Shown here piece by piece: positions 22,649 to 31,825 of a DNA stretch of 64,000 nucleotides (position 1 is the first letter of the stretch; every line of letters starts with the position of its first letter). Both the position numbers and the translations under genes were made by a program. The stretch is taken from sequence record MZ417521, one strand, 5' to 3'. Source of the stretch: Escherichia phage 132. Under the pieces are notes generated by a model. The model was not told the origin of the DNA. It made no database searches and worked only from the letters and a program-made list of their open reading frames with translations.

Positions 22649-23613
22649 TGTATTCTTTAGAGGAATTTAATAATCAAGCAATAAACGCAGATTTCCAACG
22701 TAATAATATGTTTAGCTGCGTTTTTGCGACAACTCCATCAACTAAAAGCTCTTCGTTGATAAGTTCAATTAGCAACTTTTCTTATAATAACTTGGGTCTA
22801 AATTCAGATTGGTTAGGATTGACTCAAGGCGATATTAATCAGGGAATTACCACGCTAATTACAGCTGGCACACAAAAACTGATAAGAAAATCAGGAGTTA
22901 GTAAATATCTTATTGGTGCCATGAGTCAACGTACAGTTCAAAGTTTATTAGGCTCATTTACAGTTGGTACATATTTAATTGACTTCTTTAACATGGCATA
23001 TAACTCATCTGGATTGATGATATATTCCGTAAAAATGCCAGAGAATAGATTATCCTATGAAACTGACTGGAACTATAATTCTCCTAATATTCGTATAACT
23101 GGGAGAGAATTAGACCCTTTGGTTATTTCATTTAGAATGGATTCAGAATCATGTAATTATCGTGCAATGCAAGACTGGGTTAACGCTGTTCAAGACCCAG
23201 TAACTGGACTGCGTGCTTTGCCACAAGATGTCGAGGCAGACATTCAGGTTAATCTTCATGCTCGTAATGGATTACCTCATACTGCTGTGATGTTCACCGG
23301 ATGCATTCCGGTGTCAGTGAGCGCTCCTGAGTTATCATACGATGGAGATAACCAAATAACTACATTTGATGTTACTTTTGCGTATAGAGTCATGCAGGCT
23401 GGAGCAGTTGATAGACAAGCTGCGCTTGAATGGCTTGAATCTGCTGCTATAAACGGTATTCAAAGCGTTCTCGGAAATAGCGGAGGCGTTACTGGACTAT
23501 CTAATTCGCTTTCACGACTTAGTAGATTAGGAGGAACTGCTGGAAGCATTTCAAACATTAATACTATGACGGGAATTGTCAACTCGCAAAGTAAAATATT
23601 AGGAGCAATATAA
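22648..23613 (+). CDS. 54: Baseplate tail tube initiator gp54
   Basis: 321 aa; synteny. Confidence 0.9.
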   Translation: MYSLEEFNNQAINADFQRNNMFSCVFATTPSTKSSSLISSISNFSYNNLGLNSDWLGLTQGDINQGITTLITAGTQKLIRKSGVSKYLIGAMSQRTVQSLLGSFTVGTYLIDFFNMAYNSSGLMIYSVKMPENRLSYETDWNYNSPNIRITGRELDPLVISFRMDSESCNYRAMQDWVNAVQDPVTGLRALPQDVEADIQVNLHARNGLPHTAVMFTGCIPVSVSAPELSYDGDNQITTFDVTFAYRVMQAGAVDRQAALEWLESAAINGIQSVLGNSGGVTGLSNSLSRLSRLGGTAGSISNINTMTGIVNSQSKILGAI

Positions 23614-23615
23614 CA

Positions 23616-23637
23616 ATGGGGACCGAAAGGTCCCCAT
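23616..23637. terminator. Bidirectional hairpin AUGGGGACC-GAAA-GGUCCCCAU between convergent gene 54 and minus-strand alt block
   Basis: 9-bp stem, GAAA loop, T-run following. Confidence 0.65.
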
Positions 23638-23641
23638 ATTT

Positions 23642-23932
23642 TTATTTACGGAATGAAATAAAAGCAGCAACTGAAGCAACTAAACTGTCTTCAATATAAA
23701 CTTCAATTTTTACCGGAGCTTCTGACTCAAATTTACCTGTTACTACACCTTGGAAAATGCTTTCAGTCTGTTCTGGCTTTGAAAAATTTTCAGAAGGAAA
23801 AATTCCGAACTTTTTATCTGTTCCAAAAATTTTGATAAATTCGTCGTAAACCGCTTCATTAAAAGCGTTATCAGCAGGAATAACGCCTTCAACTGTGAGT
23901 TCTTGACCTAAAAAGCGTAAAGAAGATTTCAT
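23642..23932 (-). CDS. Hypothetical protein downstream of alt block (alt.-x-like position)
   Basis: 96-aa ORF co-oriented with alt genes. Confidence 0.6.
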   Translation of the reverse strand: MKSSLRFLGQELTVEGVIPADNAFNEAVYDEFIKIFGTDKKFGIFPSENFSKPEQTESIFQGVVTGKFESEAPVKIEVYIEDSLVASVAAFISFRK

Positions 23933-23992
23933 TTTGTGTTCCTCATGTTATGTCAGTAAAATTATTATAACACAACACGAGGGACTTGTAAA

Positions 23993-26050
23993 CTACATTT
24001 TGAACTTTTTAGACATTCCGTTGATGTTAACCAAAGAAGCCAAGATTTGAGAAACTTCGTTTTCCTCTTCTTTTGATTCTTCTACAAGGAATTGATTAAA
24101 TCCAGCCATTGGACGAACTTCACCAGTTTCCATTAGATGGTCGCCATCATATACCGATTCTTCTAATTGTTCAGAAGGAGGAACGATTGTGCCTTCGATT
24201 AGATACTTGTTATAAGCAGTTTCTTTCATCATGTACGTACTCACTTTATTAATCTTCAGCAAAATTCCACGCGGTAAAATAACTTCAGCTTCTGATGGAA
24301 ATCCTGATAAATGTCCTGGAACGATAACTTTGATTCGCTCAGCTCCTTTAATTACCATACCCACGCTAGTTTCAGCATCTTCATTCGCATAAGCAGAGTG
24401 ACTGCCCATATGCATCAAATCTTCAGCATCAACTGAACCTTCTCCTTCACCAGAAAATACTGTGCCGGAATCATCTAGGGCCATATAGTTTTTACCATAC
24501 TCACCGAAGATATTTGGTTTAAGCGATGTGGATACGAAGTTCTTGAAGTAGAACATTTTATTTTCAATGTTATGACGCAAAGTTTTAAAGGTAACTTCTT
24601 GCCCACGATAAAGAGTAGTTCCTGGAGGAAGAACAGAACCTTTAGCAAATGCAGAATCCAACGTCTCGATGTGTTTAATAGCTCGTTCCATATATTCTTC
24701 ACGGGTAGAATCAGGTTTACCTAAAAGGAACGAGTTCATTTCAACATATGAATCTGCACAATAATCTTCAATTACATCAGATTCAGCTTGAGTTAATCCT
24801 TTTGGAGTTACTTCGGTGCTTGCGTATTCATATGCCTGAGCGGCAGATTCATTAATCAATTTATAAATGCCATTCATGACAAATTGAATAATAGCTGTCT
24901 TTTCATCTGGTGTAGCTTTAGAACCTTTAACTAAATCATTGATAATTTTCTTAATAACATCAAAGCTATTAGAAATATTAATGTCAGCAAGATCGCTTAA
25001 AATTTTATCAGTTTTATAATCAAAGAATTCTTTATTCTTTAAATATTCTTGAGAACCTTGATATGTTATATCGCTCTGCAACTTGATAGATGGATCACGT
25101 AAACGTGCATGGGCTAATGCAATATGATTTCGGAAACTTTCTAGTTCATAATCGTTAGATTTAAAACGAGAAGCACTTCTCATACCACCGATAGCTCCTT
25201 TGCTAAAGTTTGAACCAATCTGAATAACGCCAGAGTTCATCGGACCTTCTGCTTTATATACCGGAACTTTAGATTCAAACTCTTGATATTTCTTAGCAGC
25301 GAAGCTATCACCCTGAAGTGAAGCATCAACAGTAGAATATTGAGCTTGTGCTGCTAATCGACGACTAATTTTAGTTTTCTGAATAACAGCTTGATCCGTG
25401 CGCTTATCATTTTCTAAAGCAATAGAAGCAGCAACAGCGACAGCTTTAGGAACAGCATTACCTGTTTTAACGTCTACATAAACATCACCAACCTTTGATT
25501 CAACTTTTGTGAATAACTCAGTTGAAATAGGAGGTACACCTGGAATGTCTTCTAAATTGGCATTTTTACGGTAAACCATAATATATGCATATTTCTTATC
25601 ATAGTCCCAGATTTCCTTTAAAAGAACATATCGACCTGCTCCTTTAGTACGTACTAAACGGTCGGCAATAACTTGCATTTGACGAGCTGCACCATTTGTT
25701 TTACTCTTTAGTACGCGGAATAAGCATGCGTCAATTTTATATTGTTTCATTGTTTGAAGAGCAGTATCAAAAACGGCATTAATGACACCAATTGGATTTC
25801 CACCCAAGTTTCTAAGTTTAACTAATGATAGTTTCTCATTAACACCTATCATTACGATATGCATCATTTTATCGCCTGGCTTAACGTTTTTATTTGTATC
25901 ACCACCAGAGGTGTATGTACAAAATCTAAATCCAGGAAGCACACTTTCTTCACCGGCTTGAATAGCAAAAATTTGAGGTATTTTATGCTTAGGATTTAAG
26001 TTAACAACCGGCGCCGAAGCGCCGTCAAATAATTCTGTAATAAGTTCCAT
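23993..26050 (-). CDS. Alt-like ADP-ribosyltransferase, tandem paralog
   Basis: 685 aa; N-terminal MELITELFD... and first ~230 aa closely parallel the adjacent alt ORF; C-terminal R (LYRG), STS and EAE triad motifs of R-S-E ADP-ribosyltransferases. Confidence 0.85.
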   Translation of the reverse strand: MELITELFDGASAPVVNLNPKHKIPQIFAIQAGEESVLPGFRFCTYTSGGDTNKNVKPGDKMMHIVMIGVNEKLSLVKLRNLGGNPIGVINAVFDTALQTMKQYKIDACLFRVLKSKTNGAARQMQVIADRLVRTKGAGRYVLLKEIWDYDKKYAYIMVYRKNANLEDIPGVPPISTELFTKVESKVGDVYVDVKTGNAVPKAVAVAASIALENDKRTDQAVIQKTKISRRLAAQAQYSTVDASLQGDSFAAKKYQEFESKVPVYKAEGPMNSGVIQIGSNFSKGAIGGMRSASRFKSNDYELESFRNHIALAHARLRDPSIKLQSDITYQGSQEYLKNKEFFDYKTDKILSDLADINISNSFDVIKKIINDLVKGSKATPDEKTAIIQFVMNGIYKLINESAAQAYEYASTEVTPKGLTQAESDVIEDYCADSYVEMNSFLLGKPDSTREEYMERAIKHIETLDSAFAKGSVLPPGTTLYRGQEVTFKTLRHNIENKMFYFKNFVSTSLKPNIFGEYGKNYMALDDSGTVFSGEGEGSVDAEDLMHMGSHSAYANEDAETSVGMVIKGAERIKVIVPGHLSGFPSEAEVILPRGILLKINKVSTYMMKETAYNKYLIEGTIVPPSEQLEESVYDGDHLMETGEVRPMAGFNQFLVEESKEEENEVSQILASLVNINGMSKKFKM

Positions 26051-26053
26051 GAT

Positions 26054-28150
26054 TTATCCTTGAACGAACTTGTAAGGCATGTTTGTAATATCTATGCAAG
26101 ACGCAATAATTCCGAGAGATGATTCTGCTTTCTGTTTAACATTTGATGAAACAAATGATGCAAAGTCAACTCTGTCTTCTATTTCAATATCACCTGTCAT
26201 TGCAACCAATTCACCAGTTTCCATTAAATGGTCTCCATCATAGATTACCGATTCGGTGAGCTCTTCCGTGGTCATAACTTCAGCTTGAATGAGTTTTGTA
26301 TTATTAGATGTTGTTCCGTCATTATTAGAAGCATCAGTTATTTTATTAACCTTGACCATCAATCCGCGTGGTAGAATAACTTCAGCTTCTGTTGCTATTC
26401 CGAGACTTCCTGGATATACAACATTAACTTTATGAGCTCCATCAATTGCCCATCCTATTTGAACTTTAACGTATTCAGGATTTTCTTTATACGCTCTTAT
26501 TTCGTTTGGATTAATAGTTATTCCTTCTTCATTTTTATCAACTGTTAATTCATTGCGAGCTTCTGGTTCTAAAAGACCAATACCAGCATGTGTGATTCCA
26601 AAACGTCCAAAAATGATAGGAGTTAAAGAAGTAGATACAAAATTTCTGAAGTAGAACACTTTATTTTTAACTAAAGCTTCGTATATAGGAGCAGTCATAC
26701 TCTGAGCACGATAAACTGTAATGCCTTCTGGTATACGATCACCATTTTCAAAAGCAGAATCTAAATTAGTTATAGCAGCTTCAATTTCTTTTTCACTCAT
26801 TACTTCATAACGTTCTGGATCATAACGACCCAAAAGAAGATTATTGATGTCAGTATACCCTGATCCACAGTATTCTCTAATACCTCTCTTTTGTGATGGA
26901 GTATATTTAGAACCATCACGAGCGATTGTAATATCAATCATAGGACCAGCTCCTACGCCAGAGAAACTGTATATCATTCGTTTAAGAAATTTAGTTTTTG
27001 CTGCGTTCCAGGAATTTTTAGTTATTTCTTCCCAGACTTCATCTGGTTGTCCTTTACGATTTTTATTGTGTTTAGCAAGCCAACTATCTTTGTATTCATC
27101 AAAAAGTGAATTAACTGCTGCTGCGTATTTTTCTAAACATTTTATTGAGGTAGTTGGCTCATTTTTAATAGCATGTAGAATTGTATCTTTAATTTTTTCA
27201 GAAACTTCACCAACCCGACTCAGCGGAAAGAATTTATAATCATAATGAAGTTCATCTGCCGTTCCTTCAGCAATAATTTTTGCTGCCTTTGTTTTAGAAG
27301 CTAATGAATTAATTCCAATTTTCATTTCTTCTGCTTCGGGAATTAAAGGTGCAGTAGCTGGTTTATTAAAATTAGCTGCTGTAGATTCATACTTCTGGAA
27401 TAATTCACTTTCAAATCTAGAAGATTCCAATGACTGACTTTGTGCAATTGCTCTACGGGAAATTTTAACTTTAGTAATAACAGCTTGGTCAGAACGCTTA
27501 TCATTTTCTTGTGCAATTGATGCTGCAATTGCCTCATTTTTAGTTACTTGGGCTCCAGTATCTTTATTGATATAAACATCGCCGACCTTCGATTCAACTT
27601 TAGTAAAGAGCTCGGTACTAATTTCCGGAACTCCTGGAATGTCTTCTAGTGATACGTTTTTGCGATGTATAAGAATATATGCATACTTTTTATCATAATC
27701 CCAGAGTTCCTTAAGAAGGACGTATCTGCCACCTGAACGACTACGGATAAGTCTATCAGCAATAACTTGAATTTGTCGAGCTTGACCAGCGGTTTTAGAC
27801 TTAAGAATACGGAGCATACAAGCATCAATTTTATATTGACGCATTGTTTGCATTGCAACAGTAAAAACTGAATTGATATAATTAATTGGGCTTGGACCGA
27901 GACCTTTTAATTTAGCAATTGAACCTTTAGCAGTTAATGTAAAAGGAACAATGTGCATCATTTTATCGCCCATCTTTAAATCACGGTTAGTATCACCTCC
28001 AGATGTATAGGTACATAAACGAAAGCCTGGTTGCTCAATTGCGTCATCAACATGAACTGAAAAAATTTGCGGTATTTTCTTCTTTGGATTTAAGTTTGTA
28101 ATCGGAAGAGTAGTATCTTCGTCAAATAATTCTGTAATAAGTTCCATCAT
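26054..28150 (-). CDS. alt: Alt ADP-ribosyltransferase (capsid-packaged)
   Basis: 698 aa; MMELITELFDEDTTLPITNL... resembles T4 Alt by recall; R (VYRAQ), STS and EAE motifs near C-terminus. Confidence 0.85.
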   Translation of the reverse strand: MMELITELFDEDTTLPITNLNPKKKIPQIFSVHVDDAIEQPGFRLCTYTSGGDTNRDLKMGDKMMHIVPFTLTAKGSIAKLKGLGPSPINYINSVFTVAMQTMRQYKIDACMLRILKSKTAGQARQIQVIADRLIRSRSGGRYVLLKELWDYDKKYAYILIHRKNVSLEDIPGVPEISTELFTKVESKVGDVYINKDTGAQVTKNEAIAASIAQENDKRSDQAVITKVKISRRAIAQSQSLESSRFESELFQKYESTAANFNKPATAPLIPEAEEMKIGINSLASKTKAAKIIAEGTADELHYDYKFFPLSRVGEVSEKIKDTILHAIKNEPTTSIKCLEKYAAAVNSLFDEYKDSWLAKHNKNRKGQPDEVWEEITKNSWNAAKTKFLKRMIYSFSGVGAGPMIDITIARDGSKYTPSQKRGIREYCGSGYTDINNLLLGRYDPERYEVMSEKEIEAAITNLDSAFENGDRIPEGITVYRAQSMTAPIYEALVKNKVFYFRNFVSTSLTPIIFGRFGITHAGIGLLEPEARNELTVDKNEEGITINPNEIRAYKENPEYVKVQIGWAIDGAHKVNVVYPGSLGIATEAEVILPRGLMVKVNKITDASNNDGTTSNNTKLIQAEVMTTEELTESVIYDGDHLMETGELVAMTGDIEIEDRVDFASFVSSNVKQKAESSLGIIASCIDITNMPYKFVQG

Positions 28151-28170
28151 ATCCTCTCTAGTGTTTATTC

Positions 28171-28178
28171 TATTTATA
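28171..28178 (-). promoter_or_regulatory. Late promoter TATAAATA (minus strand) for alt
   Basis: Plus-strand TATTTATA equals TATAAATA on minus strand, ~20 nt upstream of alt ATG. Confidence 0.5.
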
Positions 28179-28183
28179 AAATT

Positions 28184-28201
28184 AAAGGCCCGAAGGCCTT
28201 T
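28184..28201 (-). terminator. AAAGGCC-CGAA-GGCCUUU hairpin upstream of alt
   Basis: 7-bp inverted repeat between the 62-aa ORF and alt. Confidence 0.45.
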
Positions 28202-28388
28202 AATAATCTAGTGGTAAGAGAGTACGATATATTTCAAACTTCGGACCTTTTTCATAGGCATCAAATGTTTCTGTGAATTTATTATAAGCATATGCATCTA
28301 CAAATTCGAGAATGACTTGTGATACAGAAGTAGAAACATCTCCACCTTCTTTTTGAGCAATGACAATTGTTTCTAAGTAAGCTTTCAT
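28200..28388 (-). CDS. Hypothetical small protein
   Basis: 62-aa ORF overlapping gene 30 stop by 4 nt. Confidence 0.55.
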   Translation of the reverse strand: MKAYLETIVIAQKEGGDVSTSVSQVILEFVDAYAYNKFTETFDAYEKGPKFEIYRTLLPLDY

Positions 28389-29848
28389 AGACCAGTTACC
28401 TCATGAAAATCACCAAATACATCCTCGAATGTATTAGCTTTAGTTTTATCTTCACGTAAACGAATCGCAATCGGAAGAAATAATTTAACGTAATCAGTGC
28501 GGCCATCAGATTTTAACCAACCGTTGCATTCGCACTCTAGAATTTTTCCAATATAATAATTTTGGTTTTCCATAATGCGAGTACGGTCAAGTTCATGCGA
28601 TTTTACACCGGCTTTATCTTTTAAGCCTGAACCAGCATTTACTTTAATTTTTCCACACTCTGACTCAAGAATAAATCCACCTGCTTTAGTAGGGTCTTTA
28701 CGGTGAGGATAAATTCCTACAATTTTTAAATCAACATCAATTACTTCTTTAAATTTATAGAGATTTTTTGAACGAGCATTTTCCCATAATCCATCGATAT
28801 TTTTGAGAATAATACCTTCAAGACCTTGGTCAATATACTTTTTATAAATTACCTTAGCTTCATCTAGGTTATTTACTACCTGGTTTTCAATTAAAATTAC
28901 TTTATCATATCCCGATGTCATTTGTTCTAGTTTAGAAAAACGTACATCATATTTTAAACGAAACGCTGGAAGACCGTATATTTCTACCAACGGGACATAA
29001 TCCCAGACCTGAAACTTCATACATTGAGCTTCTTTTTCAGAAATGGTTCCTTTTAAGGATTTATTGGCGATTCCATTAGAAGTAGTACGAGATTCCGCTA
29101 CTTCGGCGAATTCTTTGGCTTTACTAATTTCAGGATAAGCATCAAAAAGAAAATCTAGGCCTTCTGGTTCCTTTTTAACTTGCTCATGGTATACCAATTC
29201 GCCATCAATTAACACACCTTCTGGATGAATCTGGCGGGCTTCAGCAGTCATTTTGATTAACTCTTCCTTAAGAAGATCTAATCCTAGATATTCATTACCA
29301 GCTCGTGATAAAAGACGAACATCATCTAATTCATCGCCTCGGACTTCAGCAAAACACCGAGCTCCATCTGCTTTTAACTGCGCAAAGGCTGGAAACTTGA
29401 TATTCTTATTAATGCCTTTTTCATCATAAGAACTTGCAAGCATTTGAGGTTGTTCAGGAATTAAACCTGGCCAAACTTTATTTGCAATAGATACTGAAGC
29501 ACCGCATTCAAGGTCTCGCATCATAACTCGACGCAAAACTTCAACATCATCCTTTTTACCATCAGTGATATATCCAGTTAATTCCTCAATTGCAGCATTT
29601 CCAGTCAATTTCCGAGTAGCTAACGTGAATTCAATGAAGTCAAGCATATCGGTAATAGTCAGCATTCCAAAACTCTGGGTAGCAATACCCGGTTTAGGCC
29701 ATTTCTTGATATAATACTGTAACCCACGAGAATAAGTCAGACGATATACTCGTTTAAGCAATTCATTATCTTTATTCTTTTCAAGAATTGCTTGCTTCTG
29801 CTTAGTTGAACCAATAGATGCTATTTCGTTCAGAATTTTAAGAATCAT
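28385..29848 (-). CDS. 30: ATP-dependent DNA ligase gp30
   Basis: 487 aa; T4 DNA ligase length and N-terminus MILKILNEIASIGSTKQKQAILEKNKDNELLKRVYRLTYS by recall. Confidence 0.95.
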   Translation of the reverse strand: MILKILNEIASIGSTKQKQAILEKNKDNELLKRVYRLTYSRGLQYYIKKWPKPGIATQSFGMLTITDMLDFIEFTLATRKLTGNAAIEELTGYITDGKKDDVEVLRRVMMRDLECGASVSIANKVWPGLIPEQPQMLASSYDEKGINKNIKFPAFAQLKADGARCFAEVRGDELDDVRLLSRAGNEYLGLDLLKEELIKMTAEARQIHPEGVLIDGELVYHEQVKKEPEGLDFLFDAYPEISKAKEFAEVAESRTTSNGIANKSLKGTISEKEAQCMKFQVWDYVPLVEIYGLPAFRLKYDVRFSKLEQMTSGYDKVILIENQVVNNLDEAKVIYKKYIDQGLEGIILKNIDGLWENARSKNLYKFKEVIDVDLKIVGIYPHRKDPTKAGGFILESECGKIKVNAGSGLKDKAGVKSHELDRTRIMENQNYYIGKILECECNGWLKSDGRTDYVKLFLPIAIRLREDKTKANTFEDVFGDFHEVTGL

Positions 29849-30114
29849 TGTTCATCCTTTAGAGTTTGGTTTACAGCTCTATTATAAATCAATTCATCAT
29901 TAAGCTCAGTCAAAGACCTGTGGTACGTGGTTCTAACTTTATTTCCTTGCATCCAGTGCTTGACGTAAATGAAACCTTGCTCTACACATTTTTTAAAAAT
30001 TCGTTCGTCTTTTTGAGCTCGGAATTCTGGATTGCATCTAAAAAATTGATTTACGTGACCGTAATCACGTGTAGTATTACCTTCATTTTCATAAATAGTG
30101 TGAACAACAAACAT
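29845..30114 (-). CDS. Hypothetical protein (30.1-like position)
   Basis: 89-aa ORF overlapping neighbours. Confidence 0.6.
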   Translation of the reverse strand: MFVVHTIYENEGNTTRDYGHVNQFFRCNPEFRAQKDERIFKKCVEQGFIYVKHWMQGNKVRTTYHRSLTELNDELIYNRAVNQTLKDEQ

Positions 30115-30977
30115 TAGAATGCTCCTTGGAAAATATTATCACCACTAGTAAATCTATTAAAATATCCTGCATCACCAGGCTTAGTATAACTCCACGTATG
30201 GAATGGATTCATATGATACGGGTGTGTATAATATGGATTATATGGATGTGTATAATATGGATTATACGGATTAAATCCAGGAGTTCTCCAGGTAGTGTTC
30301 CAACGAAAAGAATCGTTTTTAACCATCTTCTCAATTACATCTTTTATAGCTTTTTCACTATCAAAACTTTCTTTATTTTCCTTCGGTGAAAAAAGCTTAT
30401 TTTCTACATCATTCCATGTATAAACTCGCTGCGCAGTTTTTGGAATATTGTCACGCTCTCCTCGAGCCATCCAATAAACAGGAACATTTAATATTTCACT
30501 CGCATGATCGCAGTGGTGGGCGAGATCGTCAATATAACAAATTACATTATATTTCTCTTTTGCCTTTTTGAATAACTCTTCTTTTGAAGAATCATGACCA
30601 CACATCATTACTTCTGAGAAGGCACCAGGAAAAAGAGCATTCAAATTAAATTGACGATTCAGCAGAGCGTCAATAGAATCACCCAATGCTGTAACAGCTA
30701 CAAAATTATAATCTTCTTTTAGTTTGTTAATTACGCACAGGGCATCTTTATATGGAGACAGGTAACGAATAAAATCTGATCGATTGTATTTTTCAATTAG
30801 CTTGACACCAAGTTCTTCATCACAATTAAAGAGTTTACCCGGAGAAATAAATTTCTCATCTTGGATCATTTTTAAAATATGTTCTAACGGAAGATTATAT
30901 TTCTGAGCAAAATAAGGAAGACCTGATTGCCAGCTTAAACATACTCCATCAATATCAGTTAAAATAGTAGGCTTCAT
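30114..30977 (-). CDS. HAD-like hydrolase with C-terminal Pro/Tyr-rich tandem repeat (30.2-like position)
   Basis: 287 aa; N-terminal TDIDGV matches HAD motif I (DxDG); C-terminal NPYNPYYTHPYNPYYTHPY. Confidence 0.65.
   Translation of the reverse strand: MKPTILTDIDGVCLSWQSGLPYFAQKYNLPLEHILKMIQDEKFISPGKLFNCDEELGVKLIEKYNRSDFIRYLSPYKDALCVINKLKEDYNFVAVTALGDSIDALLNRQFNLNALFPGAFSEVMMCGHDSSKEELFKKAKEKYNVICYIDDLAHHCDHASEILNVPVYWMARGERDNIPKTAQRVYTWNDVENKLFSPKENKESFDSEKAIKDVIEKMVKNDSFRWNTTWRTPGFNPYNPYYTHPYNPYYTHPYHMNPFHTWSYTKPGDAGYFNRFTSGDNIFQGAF
30224..30271 (-). repeat. Direct 24-bp tandem repeat (2 copies) encoding the repeated octapeptide in the 30.2-like protein
   Basis: GTGTATAATATGGATTATA recurs at 30224-30242 and 30248-30266, period 24 nt. 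Confidence 0.8.
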
Positions 30978-31438
30978 AGAGAGTCTCTTAATAGGTTTAA
31001 CACATCAATAAATTCAGCTTCGGTTAGTATTGTATCATCTTTTGTTAGACCACTAGCCATGCTGTGCTTCAAAACTTTTCCTTTCGAGGCTTGTAATGCA
31101 TCGCGAAAGCCCCTGTTTTGGAACGCTGCTTCAAAATATGCATTTGTGTATAATTCTTTCCACGCTGGAGAGTATCTTGAAAACGGAACTCCAAGCCAGA
31201 AGAGGGTCCCACGGTCCTGAGCTCTAGCATAAGACCTTCCAGCTTGTTGGGCGGCAAGCCCGGATAACCCAAATATACGACGTTGCTGTTCAATATTTTT
31301 CACCTTACACCCTTGGAGGAATCCTTCGAGACCTCCAAATTGGATACCATCCATAACAAAAGGCCATTGGGCGAAATTACTTAATGCGCATGATGGCCAT
31401 CTAAAATTGCTTCTAATCTCTAACTCAGACATTTTCAA
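30974..31438 (-). CDS. NADAR/YbiA-like (DUF1768) protein, putative ADP-ribose-processing enzyme (30.3-like position)
   Basis: 154 aa; segment ALSNFAQWPFVMDGIQF...FLQGCK parallels the YbiA/NADAR N-terminal signature as recalled; not confirmed by search. Confidence 0.5.
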   Translation of the reverse strand: MKMSELEIRSNFRWPSCALSNFAQWPFVMDGIQFGGLEGFLQGCKVKNIEQQRRIFGLSGLAAQQAGRSYARAQDRGTLFWLGVPFSRYSPAWKELYTNAYFEAAFQNRGFRDALQASKGKVLKHSMASGLTKDDTILTEAEFIDVLNLLRDSL

Positions 31439-31631
31439 TACTTATAATTTCAACATCAGCCCAATGACCATAGCAAGGAAGACGAAATTCAACTGGCCAG
31501 TTAGGGTCCTTTTCTAATATAATAGACTTAACTTGTGGTTCTTCGTGTTCATCAGTATATGGATTTTTATCTGTTACTTTATATGTGACCTTAATGTACT
31601 GAATTCCAAAAATCTTATTAATTATATTCAT
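31425..31631 (-). CDS. Hypothetical protein
   Basis: 68-aa ORF in co-oriented operon. Confidence 0.55.
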   Translation of the reverse strand: MNIINKIFGIQYIKVTYKVTDKNPYTDEHEEPQVKSIILEKDPNWPVEFRLPCYGHWADVEIISIENV

Positions 31632-31825
31632 ACTAATTCCTTTAATCCGTAGATAGGAGATAATTCATCACCCATACGAAGGTCTTCATTTCCATCTACC
31701 CAGGAAACAATATAAGCCTCTTTTATTTGAATACCACTCCATTTAAATGGAGGTAGAACCTTAGAAATTAATCCAGGTATACCAACTCCCTTTAATTCAA
31801 CAGTTTGACCTAAAAAGAATTTCAT
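31628..31825 (-). CDS. Hypothetical protein
   Basis: 65-aa ORF, overlapping start/stop. Confidence 0.55.
   Translation of the reverse strand: MKFFLGQTVELKGVGIPGLISKVLPPFKWSGIQIKEAYIVSWVDGNEDLRMGDELSPIYGLKELV

Follow-up and report, generated by a model that had tools for sequence, protein, structure and literature searches.

Two genes for enzymes that attach ADP-ribose and a gene for an enzyme that may remove it lie on one strand within 7.5 kb of the genome of Escherichia phage 132 (sequence record MZ417521), which raises the question of whether they form a single functional system. A first-pass annotation of the stretch analysed here (64,000 nucleotides, "the window") had read them as a writer pair plus a candidate eraser in one operon, constituting a coordinated ADP-ribosylation toolkit. 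The reading favored here identifies the region as the usual alt / gene 30 / 30.x segment of an RB32-like Tequatrovirus, carrying two independent, already-described ADP-ribosylation functions that are situated 2.8 kb apart by chance. Its probability is estimated at roughly 0.92, a joint figure for the whole explanation of the two alt genes and of gp30.3/AdfN.

The window derives from a Tequatrovirus (T4-like) genome. The 8-kb region is 96-97% identical to hundreds of sequenced phages, 389 records cover at least 80% of it, and the gene order from alt.-3 to 30.4 is identical in T4 and in the window. The analysis of these sequences directly established which genes are present and how widely they are distributed, the folds and catalytic residues of their products, and the layout of promoter and terminator. 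In the ORF listing, the three ORFs in question were found on the minus strand at 23993-26050, 26054-28150 and 30974-31438, as had been reported; the lengths of 698 and 154 aa given for the latter two are probably 697 and 152 aa. The downstream neighbor (23642..23932, minus strand) is an alt.-3 homologue of 96 aa (Pfam DUF5498), 99% identical to T4 Alt.-3, with an early-type promoter-like site at 23964-23992 (TTTACA-17-TATAAT, 11 of 12 positions matching). In T4, C-terminal extension mutants of Alt.-3 escape from the CmdTAC defense (PMC11618068).

The gene alt1 (26054..28147, minus strand, 697 aa) is the orthologue of T4 alt. Its ORF would encode 698 aa when read from 28150; since T4 Alt begins with MELITELFD, the second ATG, at 28147, is the likelier start. 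The product matches Pfam PF03496 (ADPrib_exo_Tox) with 126.7 bits (E = 9e-37; gathering cut-off 23.4) and displays the motifs YRAQ479, STS505 and EAEVILPRG587, with R480, S505-T-S507 and E587-A-E589 as catalytic residues. It agrees with T4 Alt (NP_049811) in gene position, in the upstream late promoter and hairpin, in the R-S-E motifs, in the N-terminal 240 aa (99% identity) and in the tail (91%), whereas the central region (38% over aa 241-440) and the ART domain (60% over aa 441-640) have diverged and E-x-E is EAE in alt1 and EME in T4 Alt. alt1 is an RB32/RB6/wV7-type allele; the central and ART part of the RB32-type version is at least 90% identical in ~318 phage records. RNA polymerase alpha is the classic target of T4 Alt, and Alts with an E-x-E motif, as R-S-E ARTs, are arginine-specific protein transferases. 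The T4 prohead core holds ~40 copies of Alt, the N-terminus of which is trimmed by gp21 (PMC9958956), and T4 Alt is known for its presence in the virion, its processing by gp21 and its ADP-ribosylation of RNA polymerase alpha (PMC9958956, PMC5512222). By orthology, alt1, an allele of the RB32 type, most likely encodes an arginine ADP-ribosyltransferase that is packaged into the head and injected.

The second gene, alt2 (23993..26050, minus strand, 685 aa), is an intact version of the gene named alt.-2. Its ATG follows the stop codon of alt1 at a distance of 3 nt and is preceded by AAGGA, 8 nt upstream; alt2 thus appears to be translationally coupled to alt1. Its product consists of an N-terminal Alt module (aa 1-240), a divergent helical center, a C-terminal R-S-E ART domain and a disordered tail. 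The motifs are YRGQ481, STS507 and EAEVILPRG587, with R482, S507-T-S509 and E587-A-E589 as catalytic residues, and the match to PF03496 scores 73.4 bits (E = 2e-20; same gathering cut-off of 23.4). Both proteins match PHROG 802, "Alt-like RNA polymerase ADP-ribosyltransferase", alt2 with E = 3e-256. A phmmer search of alt2 against the PDB found no match. Confidence in the AF2 model of alt2 is moderate overall (pLDDT 75.6): loops within the ART domain (residues 514-554) are poorly predicted, and the tail is disordered. In Foldseek, the ART domain of this model matched Vis, Certhrax, C3, CDTa/iota and VIP2 at probability 1.00 (E 7e-8 to 1e-5, target TM 0.6-0.67). The catalytic R, S-T-S and E-x-E are invariant in an alignment of 27 homologues extending down to 42% identity. 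Both large ORFs are hence Alt-type R-S-E ADP-ribosyltransferases of the Alt/VIP2 clade with diverged centers, in line with the motifs originally quoted for them, and the model of the second one shows an intact ART fold.

Aligned end to end, alt1 and alt2 share 41% identity (E = 2e-165). Both start with MELITELFD, which places I-T-E at residues 4-6 in each, and their N-terminal ~240 aa are 66% identical; the initial description of this part as highly similar is appropriate, the alternative wording "near-identical" is too strong. Divergence of the centers had also been noted, and pairwise alignment puts it at 18% identity, with 35% in the ART region. At the DNA level, identity between the two genes is no more than 63-72% across the N-terminal part and falls to 36-58% outside it, values on which a recent gene conversion or duplication of the alt copies was rejected.

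Whether T4 has two full-length alt genes as well had been left as a question by the first-pass annotation. T4 possesses one, and the second survives as the remnants alt.-1 and alt.-2, which are near-identical to alt2 residues 1-117; the gene is broken in T4 and whole in the window. The stretch matching window positions 24013-25702 is missing from T4, a 1.69-kb internal deletion that cost it the second alt, and T4 additionally has an internal stop. The closest counterpart of alt2 is RB32 alt.-2 (NC_008515), which is 98% identical over the paralogue-specific part (aa 240-683). The duplication as such is already known from the T4 annotation and from comparative papers since 2003-2006.

The state of T4 invites the notion that the second alt is a redundant or decaying duplicate, devoid of a function of its own and heading the same way. 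T4 is fully viable with mere remnants of it, so that phages can do without alt.-2, on laboratory hosts at any rate; the T4 record speaks of an old duplication, and literature searches on alt.-2 retrieved no functional study, only a comparative-genomics mention. The latter may have a simple cause, as alt.-2 is absent from T4, the laboratory model. Against decay, the 685-aa ORF is intact, retains the catalytic residues that are invariant among the homologues and carries a coupled ribosome-binding site. Its paralogue-specific part is at least 95% identical in ~401 phage records, RB32 "alt.-2" included, its 90%-identity cluster comprises 772 sequences and intact versions also occur at 74-93% identity; this conservation indicates purifying selection on alt.-2. 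RB32 and ~400 other phages carry it under annotations such as "alt.-2 / Alt-like ADP-ribosyltransferase". Moreover, the identity of 18-35% to alt1 outside the N-terminal module implies that the duplication is old and that the copy has been retained, rather than being recent. A redundant or decaying duplicate is therefore improbable.

Gene 30.3, or adfN (30974..31432, minus strand), encodes the presumed eraser. The ORF at 30974-31438 comprises 154 aa when read from a TTG, but translation almost certainly begins at the ATG at 31432, yielding 152 aa as in T4 gp30.3, to which the protein is 97% identical across all 152 residues. As in T4, the gene is positioned between 30.2 and 30.4, and the product shares with T4 AdfN the residues E36, K43 and H123 (T4 numbering), the C-terminal helix and the NADAR fold; the sole differences are four conservative substitutions, none of them catalytic (V47I, I104F, K107R and I125M, the T4 residue being named first and the window residue last, with T4 numbering). 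Pfam Phage_30_3 (PF08010) is matched with 231 bits (cut-off 36) over model positions 1-138 of 138. Across 63 homologues, E36 and H123 never vary, and conservation of K43 is at least 90%. The catalytic roles in AdfN have been defined by the mutants E36A and K43A (PMC11825919), and in phage NADARs a His replaces the Glu/Asp of the last strand (PMC11125620). The window gene is full length, in contrast to adfN of RB69, which is truncated and inactive-leaning (PMC11825919).

Membership of this protein in the NADAR/YbiA family had been guessed from a motif in the sequence alone, and the guess proved correct. The profile link is transitive rather than direct, and the assignment rests on the fold, on family-level profiles and on the literature: searched on its own against Pfam, the window protein matched just Phage_30_3, with NADAR not matched at E <= 1, an NCBIfam search returned nothing, and phmmer against the PDB gave a chance match only (E = 1.1). 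At the family level, 25 of the 63 members match Pfam NADAR (PF08719; best E = 1.5e-7), and the family profile has YbiA as its best PDB match (E = 0.006). The AF2 model (pLDDT 93.4), which has the alpha+beta YbiA/NADAR fold, gave YbiA (2b3w) as the top Foldseek match (E = 4.6e-5, TM 0.67), followed by PnNADAR (8bau) and GlNADAR (8bat), with probabilities of at least 0.99; the next match has a probability of 0.03, such that NADARs are the only confident PDB matches. gp30.3 belongs to the NADAR/YbiA superfamily, within the phage gp30.3 clade, the nearest relatives of which are DarG1-type NADARs (PMC11825919). T4 AdfN, named as the anti-DarT factor NADAR, strips ADP-ribose from guanine in DNA and counters DarTG1 (PMC11825919, PMC11125620). 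By analogy with this protein, window gp30.3 is very probably a guanine-ADP-ribose DNA glycohydrolase and an anti-DarTG1 factor. The counter-defense against host ADP-ribosylating toxins that had been suggested for the locus is in this sense well founded, and both the NADAR identity and the anti-DarTG1 role of gp30.3 are already known, having been published in 2024-2025.

The genomic arrangement separates 30.3 from the alt genes. The 30.3 ORF lies 2.8 kb upstream of alt1 on the same strand, and the intervening segment (28200..30977, minus strand) is occupied by four genes, none of them for ADP-ribosylation (Pfam Phage_blade and DUF3045 are found here): alt.1 (28200-28388), the gene 30 DNA ligase (gp30, 28385-29848), 30.1 (29845-30114) and 30.2 (30114-30977; 94% identical to T4 30.2). 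Some 20 nt ahead of the alt1 start codon, at 28171..28178 (minus strand), there is an exact match to TATAAATA, the T4 late-promoter consensus; exact matches to it number 17 in the window, where 8.5 would be expected by chance. Just before it, a terminator-like hairpin (AAAGGCC-TTCG-GGCCTTT, then AATTTTAT; 28184..28201, minus strand) overlaps the alt.1 stop codon; it was read directly from the sequence, the automatic terminator scan not having listed it. A terminator upstream of alt is reported to be conserved in T4-like genomes (PMC1524935). With such a hairpin and a late promoter directly before it, alt is not expected to be in the transcription unit of 30.3: the hairpin appears to separate the gene 30/alt.1 unit from alt, placing the 30.x genes in the upstream unit, contrary to the single operon originally envisaged.

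The arrangement recalls DarT1-NADAR (DarTG1) pairs in that an ART and a NADAR hydrolase occur within one genome. The ARTs of the phage, however, are protein transferases of the Alt/VIP2 type and not DarT. In operonic ART-hydrolase pairs the genes are adjacent and co-transcribed, whereas here 2.8 kb and four genes separate them, and they are neither adjacent nor co-transcribed; unlike in DarTG1, the NADAR of the phage is an "orphan antitoxin" directed against host DarT1. A coordinated toolkit, in which the NADAR would reverse or tune the ADP-ribosylation made by the Alts and the three genes would be co-regulated, has in its favor the shared strand, the earlier remarks on this neighborhood by Iyer et al. 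(2022; PMC9503650) and the requirement of AdfN for a further T-even factor to be fully active (PMC11825919), but it is very improbable given that hairpin, late promoter and four unrelated genes intervene, that Alt is a late-made virion protein (PMC9958956) while 30.3, like other phage NADAR genes, is described as an early gene (PMC9503650), that the tested NADARs including T4 gp30.3 hydrolyze guanine-ADPr on DNA and not thymidine-ADPr (PMC11125620) whereas the mark set by Alt is on protein arginine, and that alt.-2/alt and adfN vary independently, T4 having adfN without an intact alt.-2 and RB69 having alt with a truncated adfN. Proximity is all that links writers and eraser.

Two independent functions would then operate in the following manner, the packaging and activity of Alt and the activity and counter-defense role of AdfN being taken from the literature on the near-identical T4 proteins. 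The tandem alt genes would be expressed late from the TATAAATA promoter. Both products possess an N-terminal Alt module; in T4 Alt, this module is associated with entry into the prohead core and with N-terminal trimming by the gp21 protease, and we infer it, by analogy, to be the packaging determinant. Since this module and an intact R / S-T-S / E-x-E domain are kept in both, both Alts are most likely head-packaged proteins that enter the host along with the DNA. Upon injection, they would attach single ADP-ribose units to arginines on proteins of the host, the classic case for T4 Alt being RNA polymerase alpha, and their unrelated centers probably confer different sets of targets. Early gp30.3/AdfN would remove ADP-ribose from guanine in phage DNA and would thereby neutralize DarT1, the toxin of host DarTG1.

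The first-pass annotation was largely right, and what it described is ordinary, nearly all of it being already documented; as a discovery, the locus carries little weight. The second Alt is the part with room for experiment. From its homology we infer packaging, activity and a distinct target, and alt.-2 may tentatively be proposed to encode a second injected ADP-ribosyltransferase, which its unrelated center directs to a substrate other than that of Alt, a possibility that we regard with somewhat more doubt than confidence. MazF, a host defense or stress protein, is a further substrate of T4 Alt. If the proposal holds, the substrate of alt.-2 could likewise be a host defense or stress protein, or even a nucleic acid; in a more remote variant, an Alt-type protein may be the additional T-even factor on which AdfN depends. 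As alt.-2 is intact and conserved in ~400 sequenced T-even phages, its target is a tractable, if incremental, experimental question, and phages of the RB32 type would, if the proposal is true, deliver a payload of two effectors.

Many Tequatrovirus (T4-like) genomes share 96-97% identity with the segment from 23600 to 31700 (8.1 kb), which matches 723 phage records, 389 of them covering at least 80% of its length. The genes follow one another on the minus strand in the order alt.-3, alt2, alt1, alt.1, DNA ligase (gene 30), 30.1, 30.2, 30.3, 30.4 etc.; T4, according to its reference record, has the same arrangement except for the second alt gene. The three open reading frames (ORFs) described in the first-pass annotation, the upstream alt gene (alt1, 26054-28147), the downstream one (alt2, 23993-26050, 685 residues) and gene 30.3 (30974-31432), are all present, confirming its observation, and its interpretation is largely right.

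The alignment with T4 Alt suggests that alt1 more likely starts at the second ATG of its 698-residue ORF (28147), yielding 697 residues. An end-to-end alignment of the two Alt proteins gives 41% identity (E = 2e-165), unevenly distributed: residues 1-240 reach 66%, residues 241-440 18%, the catalytic region 35% and the tail 33%. Their N-termini, initially called near-identical, are better described as similar. The motifs proposed for the pair were recovered (YRAQ / STS / EAEVILPRG and YRGQ / STS / EAEVILPRG), both proteins exceed the gathering score of Pfam ADPrib_exo_Tox (23.4) with 126.7 bits (alt1) and 73.4 bits (alt2), and each matches PHROG 802 ('Alt-like RNA polymerase ADP-ribosyltransferase') along its whole length. 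Across 27 aligned homologues with identities as low as 42%, R482, S507, S509, E587 and E589 (alt2 numbering) never vary. The C-terminal domain of the AlphaFold2 model of alt2 (pLDDT 75.6) resembles the R-S-E toxins Vis, Certhrax, C3, CDTa/iota and VIP2 with a probability of 1.00; the second alt gene is therefore predicted to encode an intact ART fold, contrary to the lack of one that the first-pass annotation had named as refuting its reading. The prohead protease gp21 recognizes sites of the pattern L/I-x-E, which is fitted by I-T-E at Alt residues 4-6 and likewise by L-M-E within YDGDHLMETGE (24115-24147 and 26201-26233, both minus strand), an element kept in alt1, alt2 and T4 Alt amid divergent C-terminal regions. 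The element may mark C-terminal processing of Alt proteins; the tail beyond it is predicted to be disordered.

In T4, 1.69 kb equivalent to 24013-25702 are missing, and the small ORFs alt.-1 and alt.-2 are near-identical to residues 1-117 of alt2, which is the intact form of the gene that T4 keeps as these two pieces. The T4 record itself remarks that alt.-1 and alt.-2 represent an old duplication of alt, an account also given by Nolan et al. 2006 (PMC1524935), with phage 44RR carrying a full-length duplicate. The paralogue-specific part of alt2 occurs at 95% identity or more in ~401 phage records. T4, for which the question had been raised, thus lacks a second full-length alt gene, whereas a large share of its relatives possess one. 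The RB32 equivalent is annotated 'alt.-2: Alt-like RNA polymerase ADP-ribosyltransferase', the 90%-identity cluster of alt2 holds 772 sequences, and the presence of two full-length genes in T4 relatives is annotated public knowledge. The upstream gene, alt1, is orthologous to T4 alt but has a mosaic structure: residues 1-240 are 99% and the tail 91% identical to T4 Alt, the centre and catalytic domain only 38-60%. About 318 phage records, RB32, RB6 and wV7 among them, carry this allele at 90% identity or more. Residues 241-600 (26348-27427, minus strand) show 18-68% identity to T4 Alt in 40-residue windows, and in Tequatrovirus the segment occurs in no fewer than two allele classes, the alt1 type in ~318 records and T4-type records at ~45% identity.

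The product of gene 30.3, gp30.3 (AdfN), more likely starts at the ATG at 31432 and comprises 152 residues, as judged from the alignment with T4 gp30.3, to which it is 97% identical and untruncated. Its Pfam Phage_30_3 score is 231 bits; alone, it matches neither Pfam NADAR nor any PDB sequence directly. The NADAR assignment of the first-pass annotation nevertheless stands on other grounds: 25 of 63 homologues match Pfam NADAR (best E = 1.5e-7), the family profile finds YbiA as its best PDB match (E = 0.006), the high-confidence model (pLDDT 93.4) matches NADAR structures only (YbiA 2b3w, PnNADAR 8bau, GlNADAR 8bat), and all 63 homologues keep E36 and H123, nearly all of them K43. T4 gp30.3 defines the phage clade of NADARs, with His in place of the last-strand Glu/Asp, and in vitro it removes guanine-ADPr, but not thymidine-ADPr (PMC11125620). 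Renamed AdfN, it is both necessary and sufficient for T-even phages to resist DarTG1, a host defence with an ADP-ribosylating toxin, and is impaired by E36A, K43A and an RB69-type C-terminal truncation (PMC11825919). Because these two studies covered the near-identical T4 protein, the profile and structure checks, hydrolase assay and DarTG plaque assays that had been proposed are essentially published. Within gene 30.3, a TTG-initiated ORF of 74 residues in another frame (31069-31293, minus strand) lies at the position of the annotated T4 internal translation product gp30.3'.

Directly 3' of the alt.1 stop codon lies a hairpin (AAAGGCC-TTCG-GGCCTTT) with AATTTTAT behind it; the T4 late-promoter box TATAAATA (28171-28178), GAGAGGA and the alt1 ATG then follow in this order. 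Only 3 nt separate the alt1 stop from the alt2 ATG, which is preceded 8 nt upstream by AAGGA. A separate promoter-like site of the early type (TTTACA-17-TATAAT, 23964-23992, minus strand) precedes alt.-3. The two alt genes therefore form one late unit, which fits the place of T4 Alt in the prohead core, where it is present in ~40 copies and has its N-terminus trimmed by gp21 (PMC9958956). Gene 30.3 belongs to a separate unit upstream, so the single operon assumed initially is not supported. That NADAR and ART genes lie close together in T4-like phages has been remarked before (PMC9503650) and could suggest a coordinated toolkit, with the Alt transferases as writers and the NADAR protein as eraser. 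Such functional coupling is nonetheless very improbable, because the substrates (DNA guanine for NADAR, protein arginine for the Alts), timing and transcription units differ; the genes also vary independently, T4 having adfN without alt.-2 and RB69 having alt with a truncated adfN.

Directly downstream of alt2, the alt.-3 homologue (23642-23932, minus strand; 96 residues, DUF5498) is 99% identical to its T4 counterpart, of which C-terminal extension mutants escape CmdTAC, a defence with an mRNA-ADP-ribosylating toxin (PMC11618068). A strong bidirectional terminator-like hairpin (23616-23637, both strands; 9 bp, 6 GC) separates alt.-3 from the converging gene 54 (tail tube, plus strand). In gp30.2 (gene 30.2, 30114-30977), the Pro/Tyr-rich C-terminal part contains, relative to T4, an extra 10-residue unit of the YTHPYNPY type, added by a 24-nt tandem repeat of 2.3 copies (30216-30271, minus strand); gp30.2 has a HAD-like DxDGV motif at its N-terminus and matches no Pfam family. 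With the exception of the alt.-2 target, the reading of the whole locus is already known.
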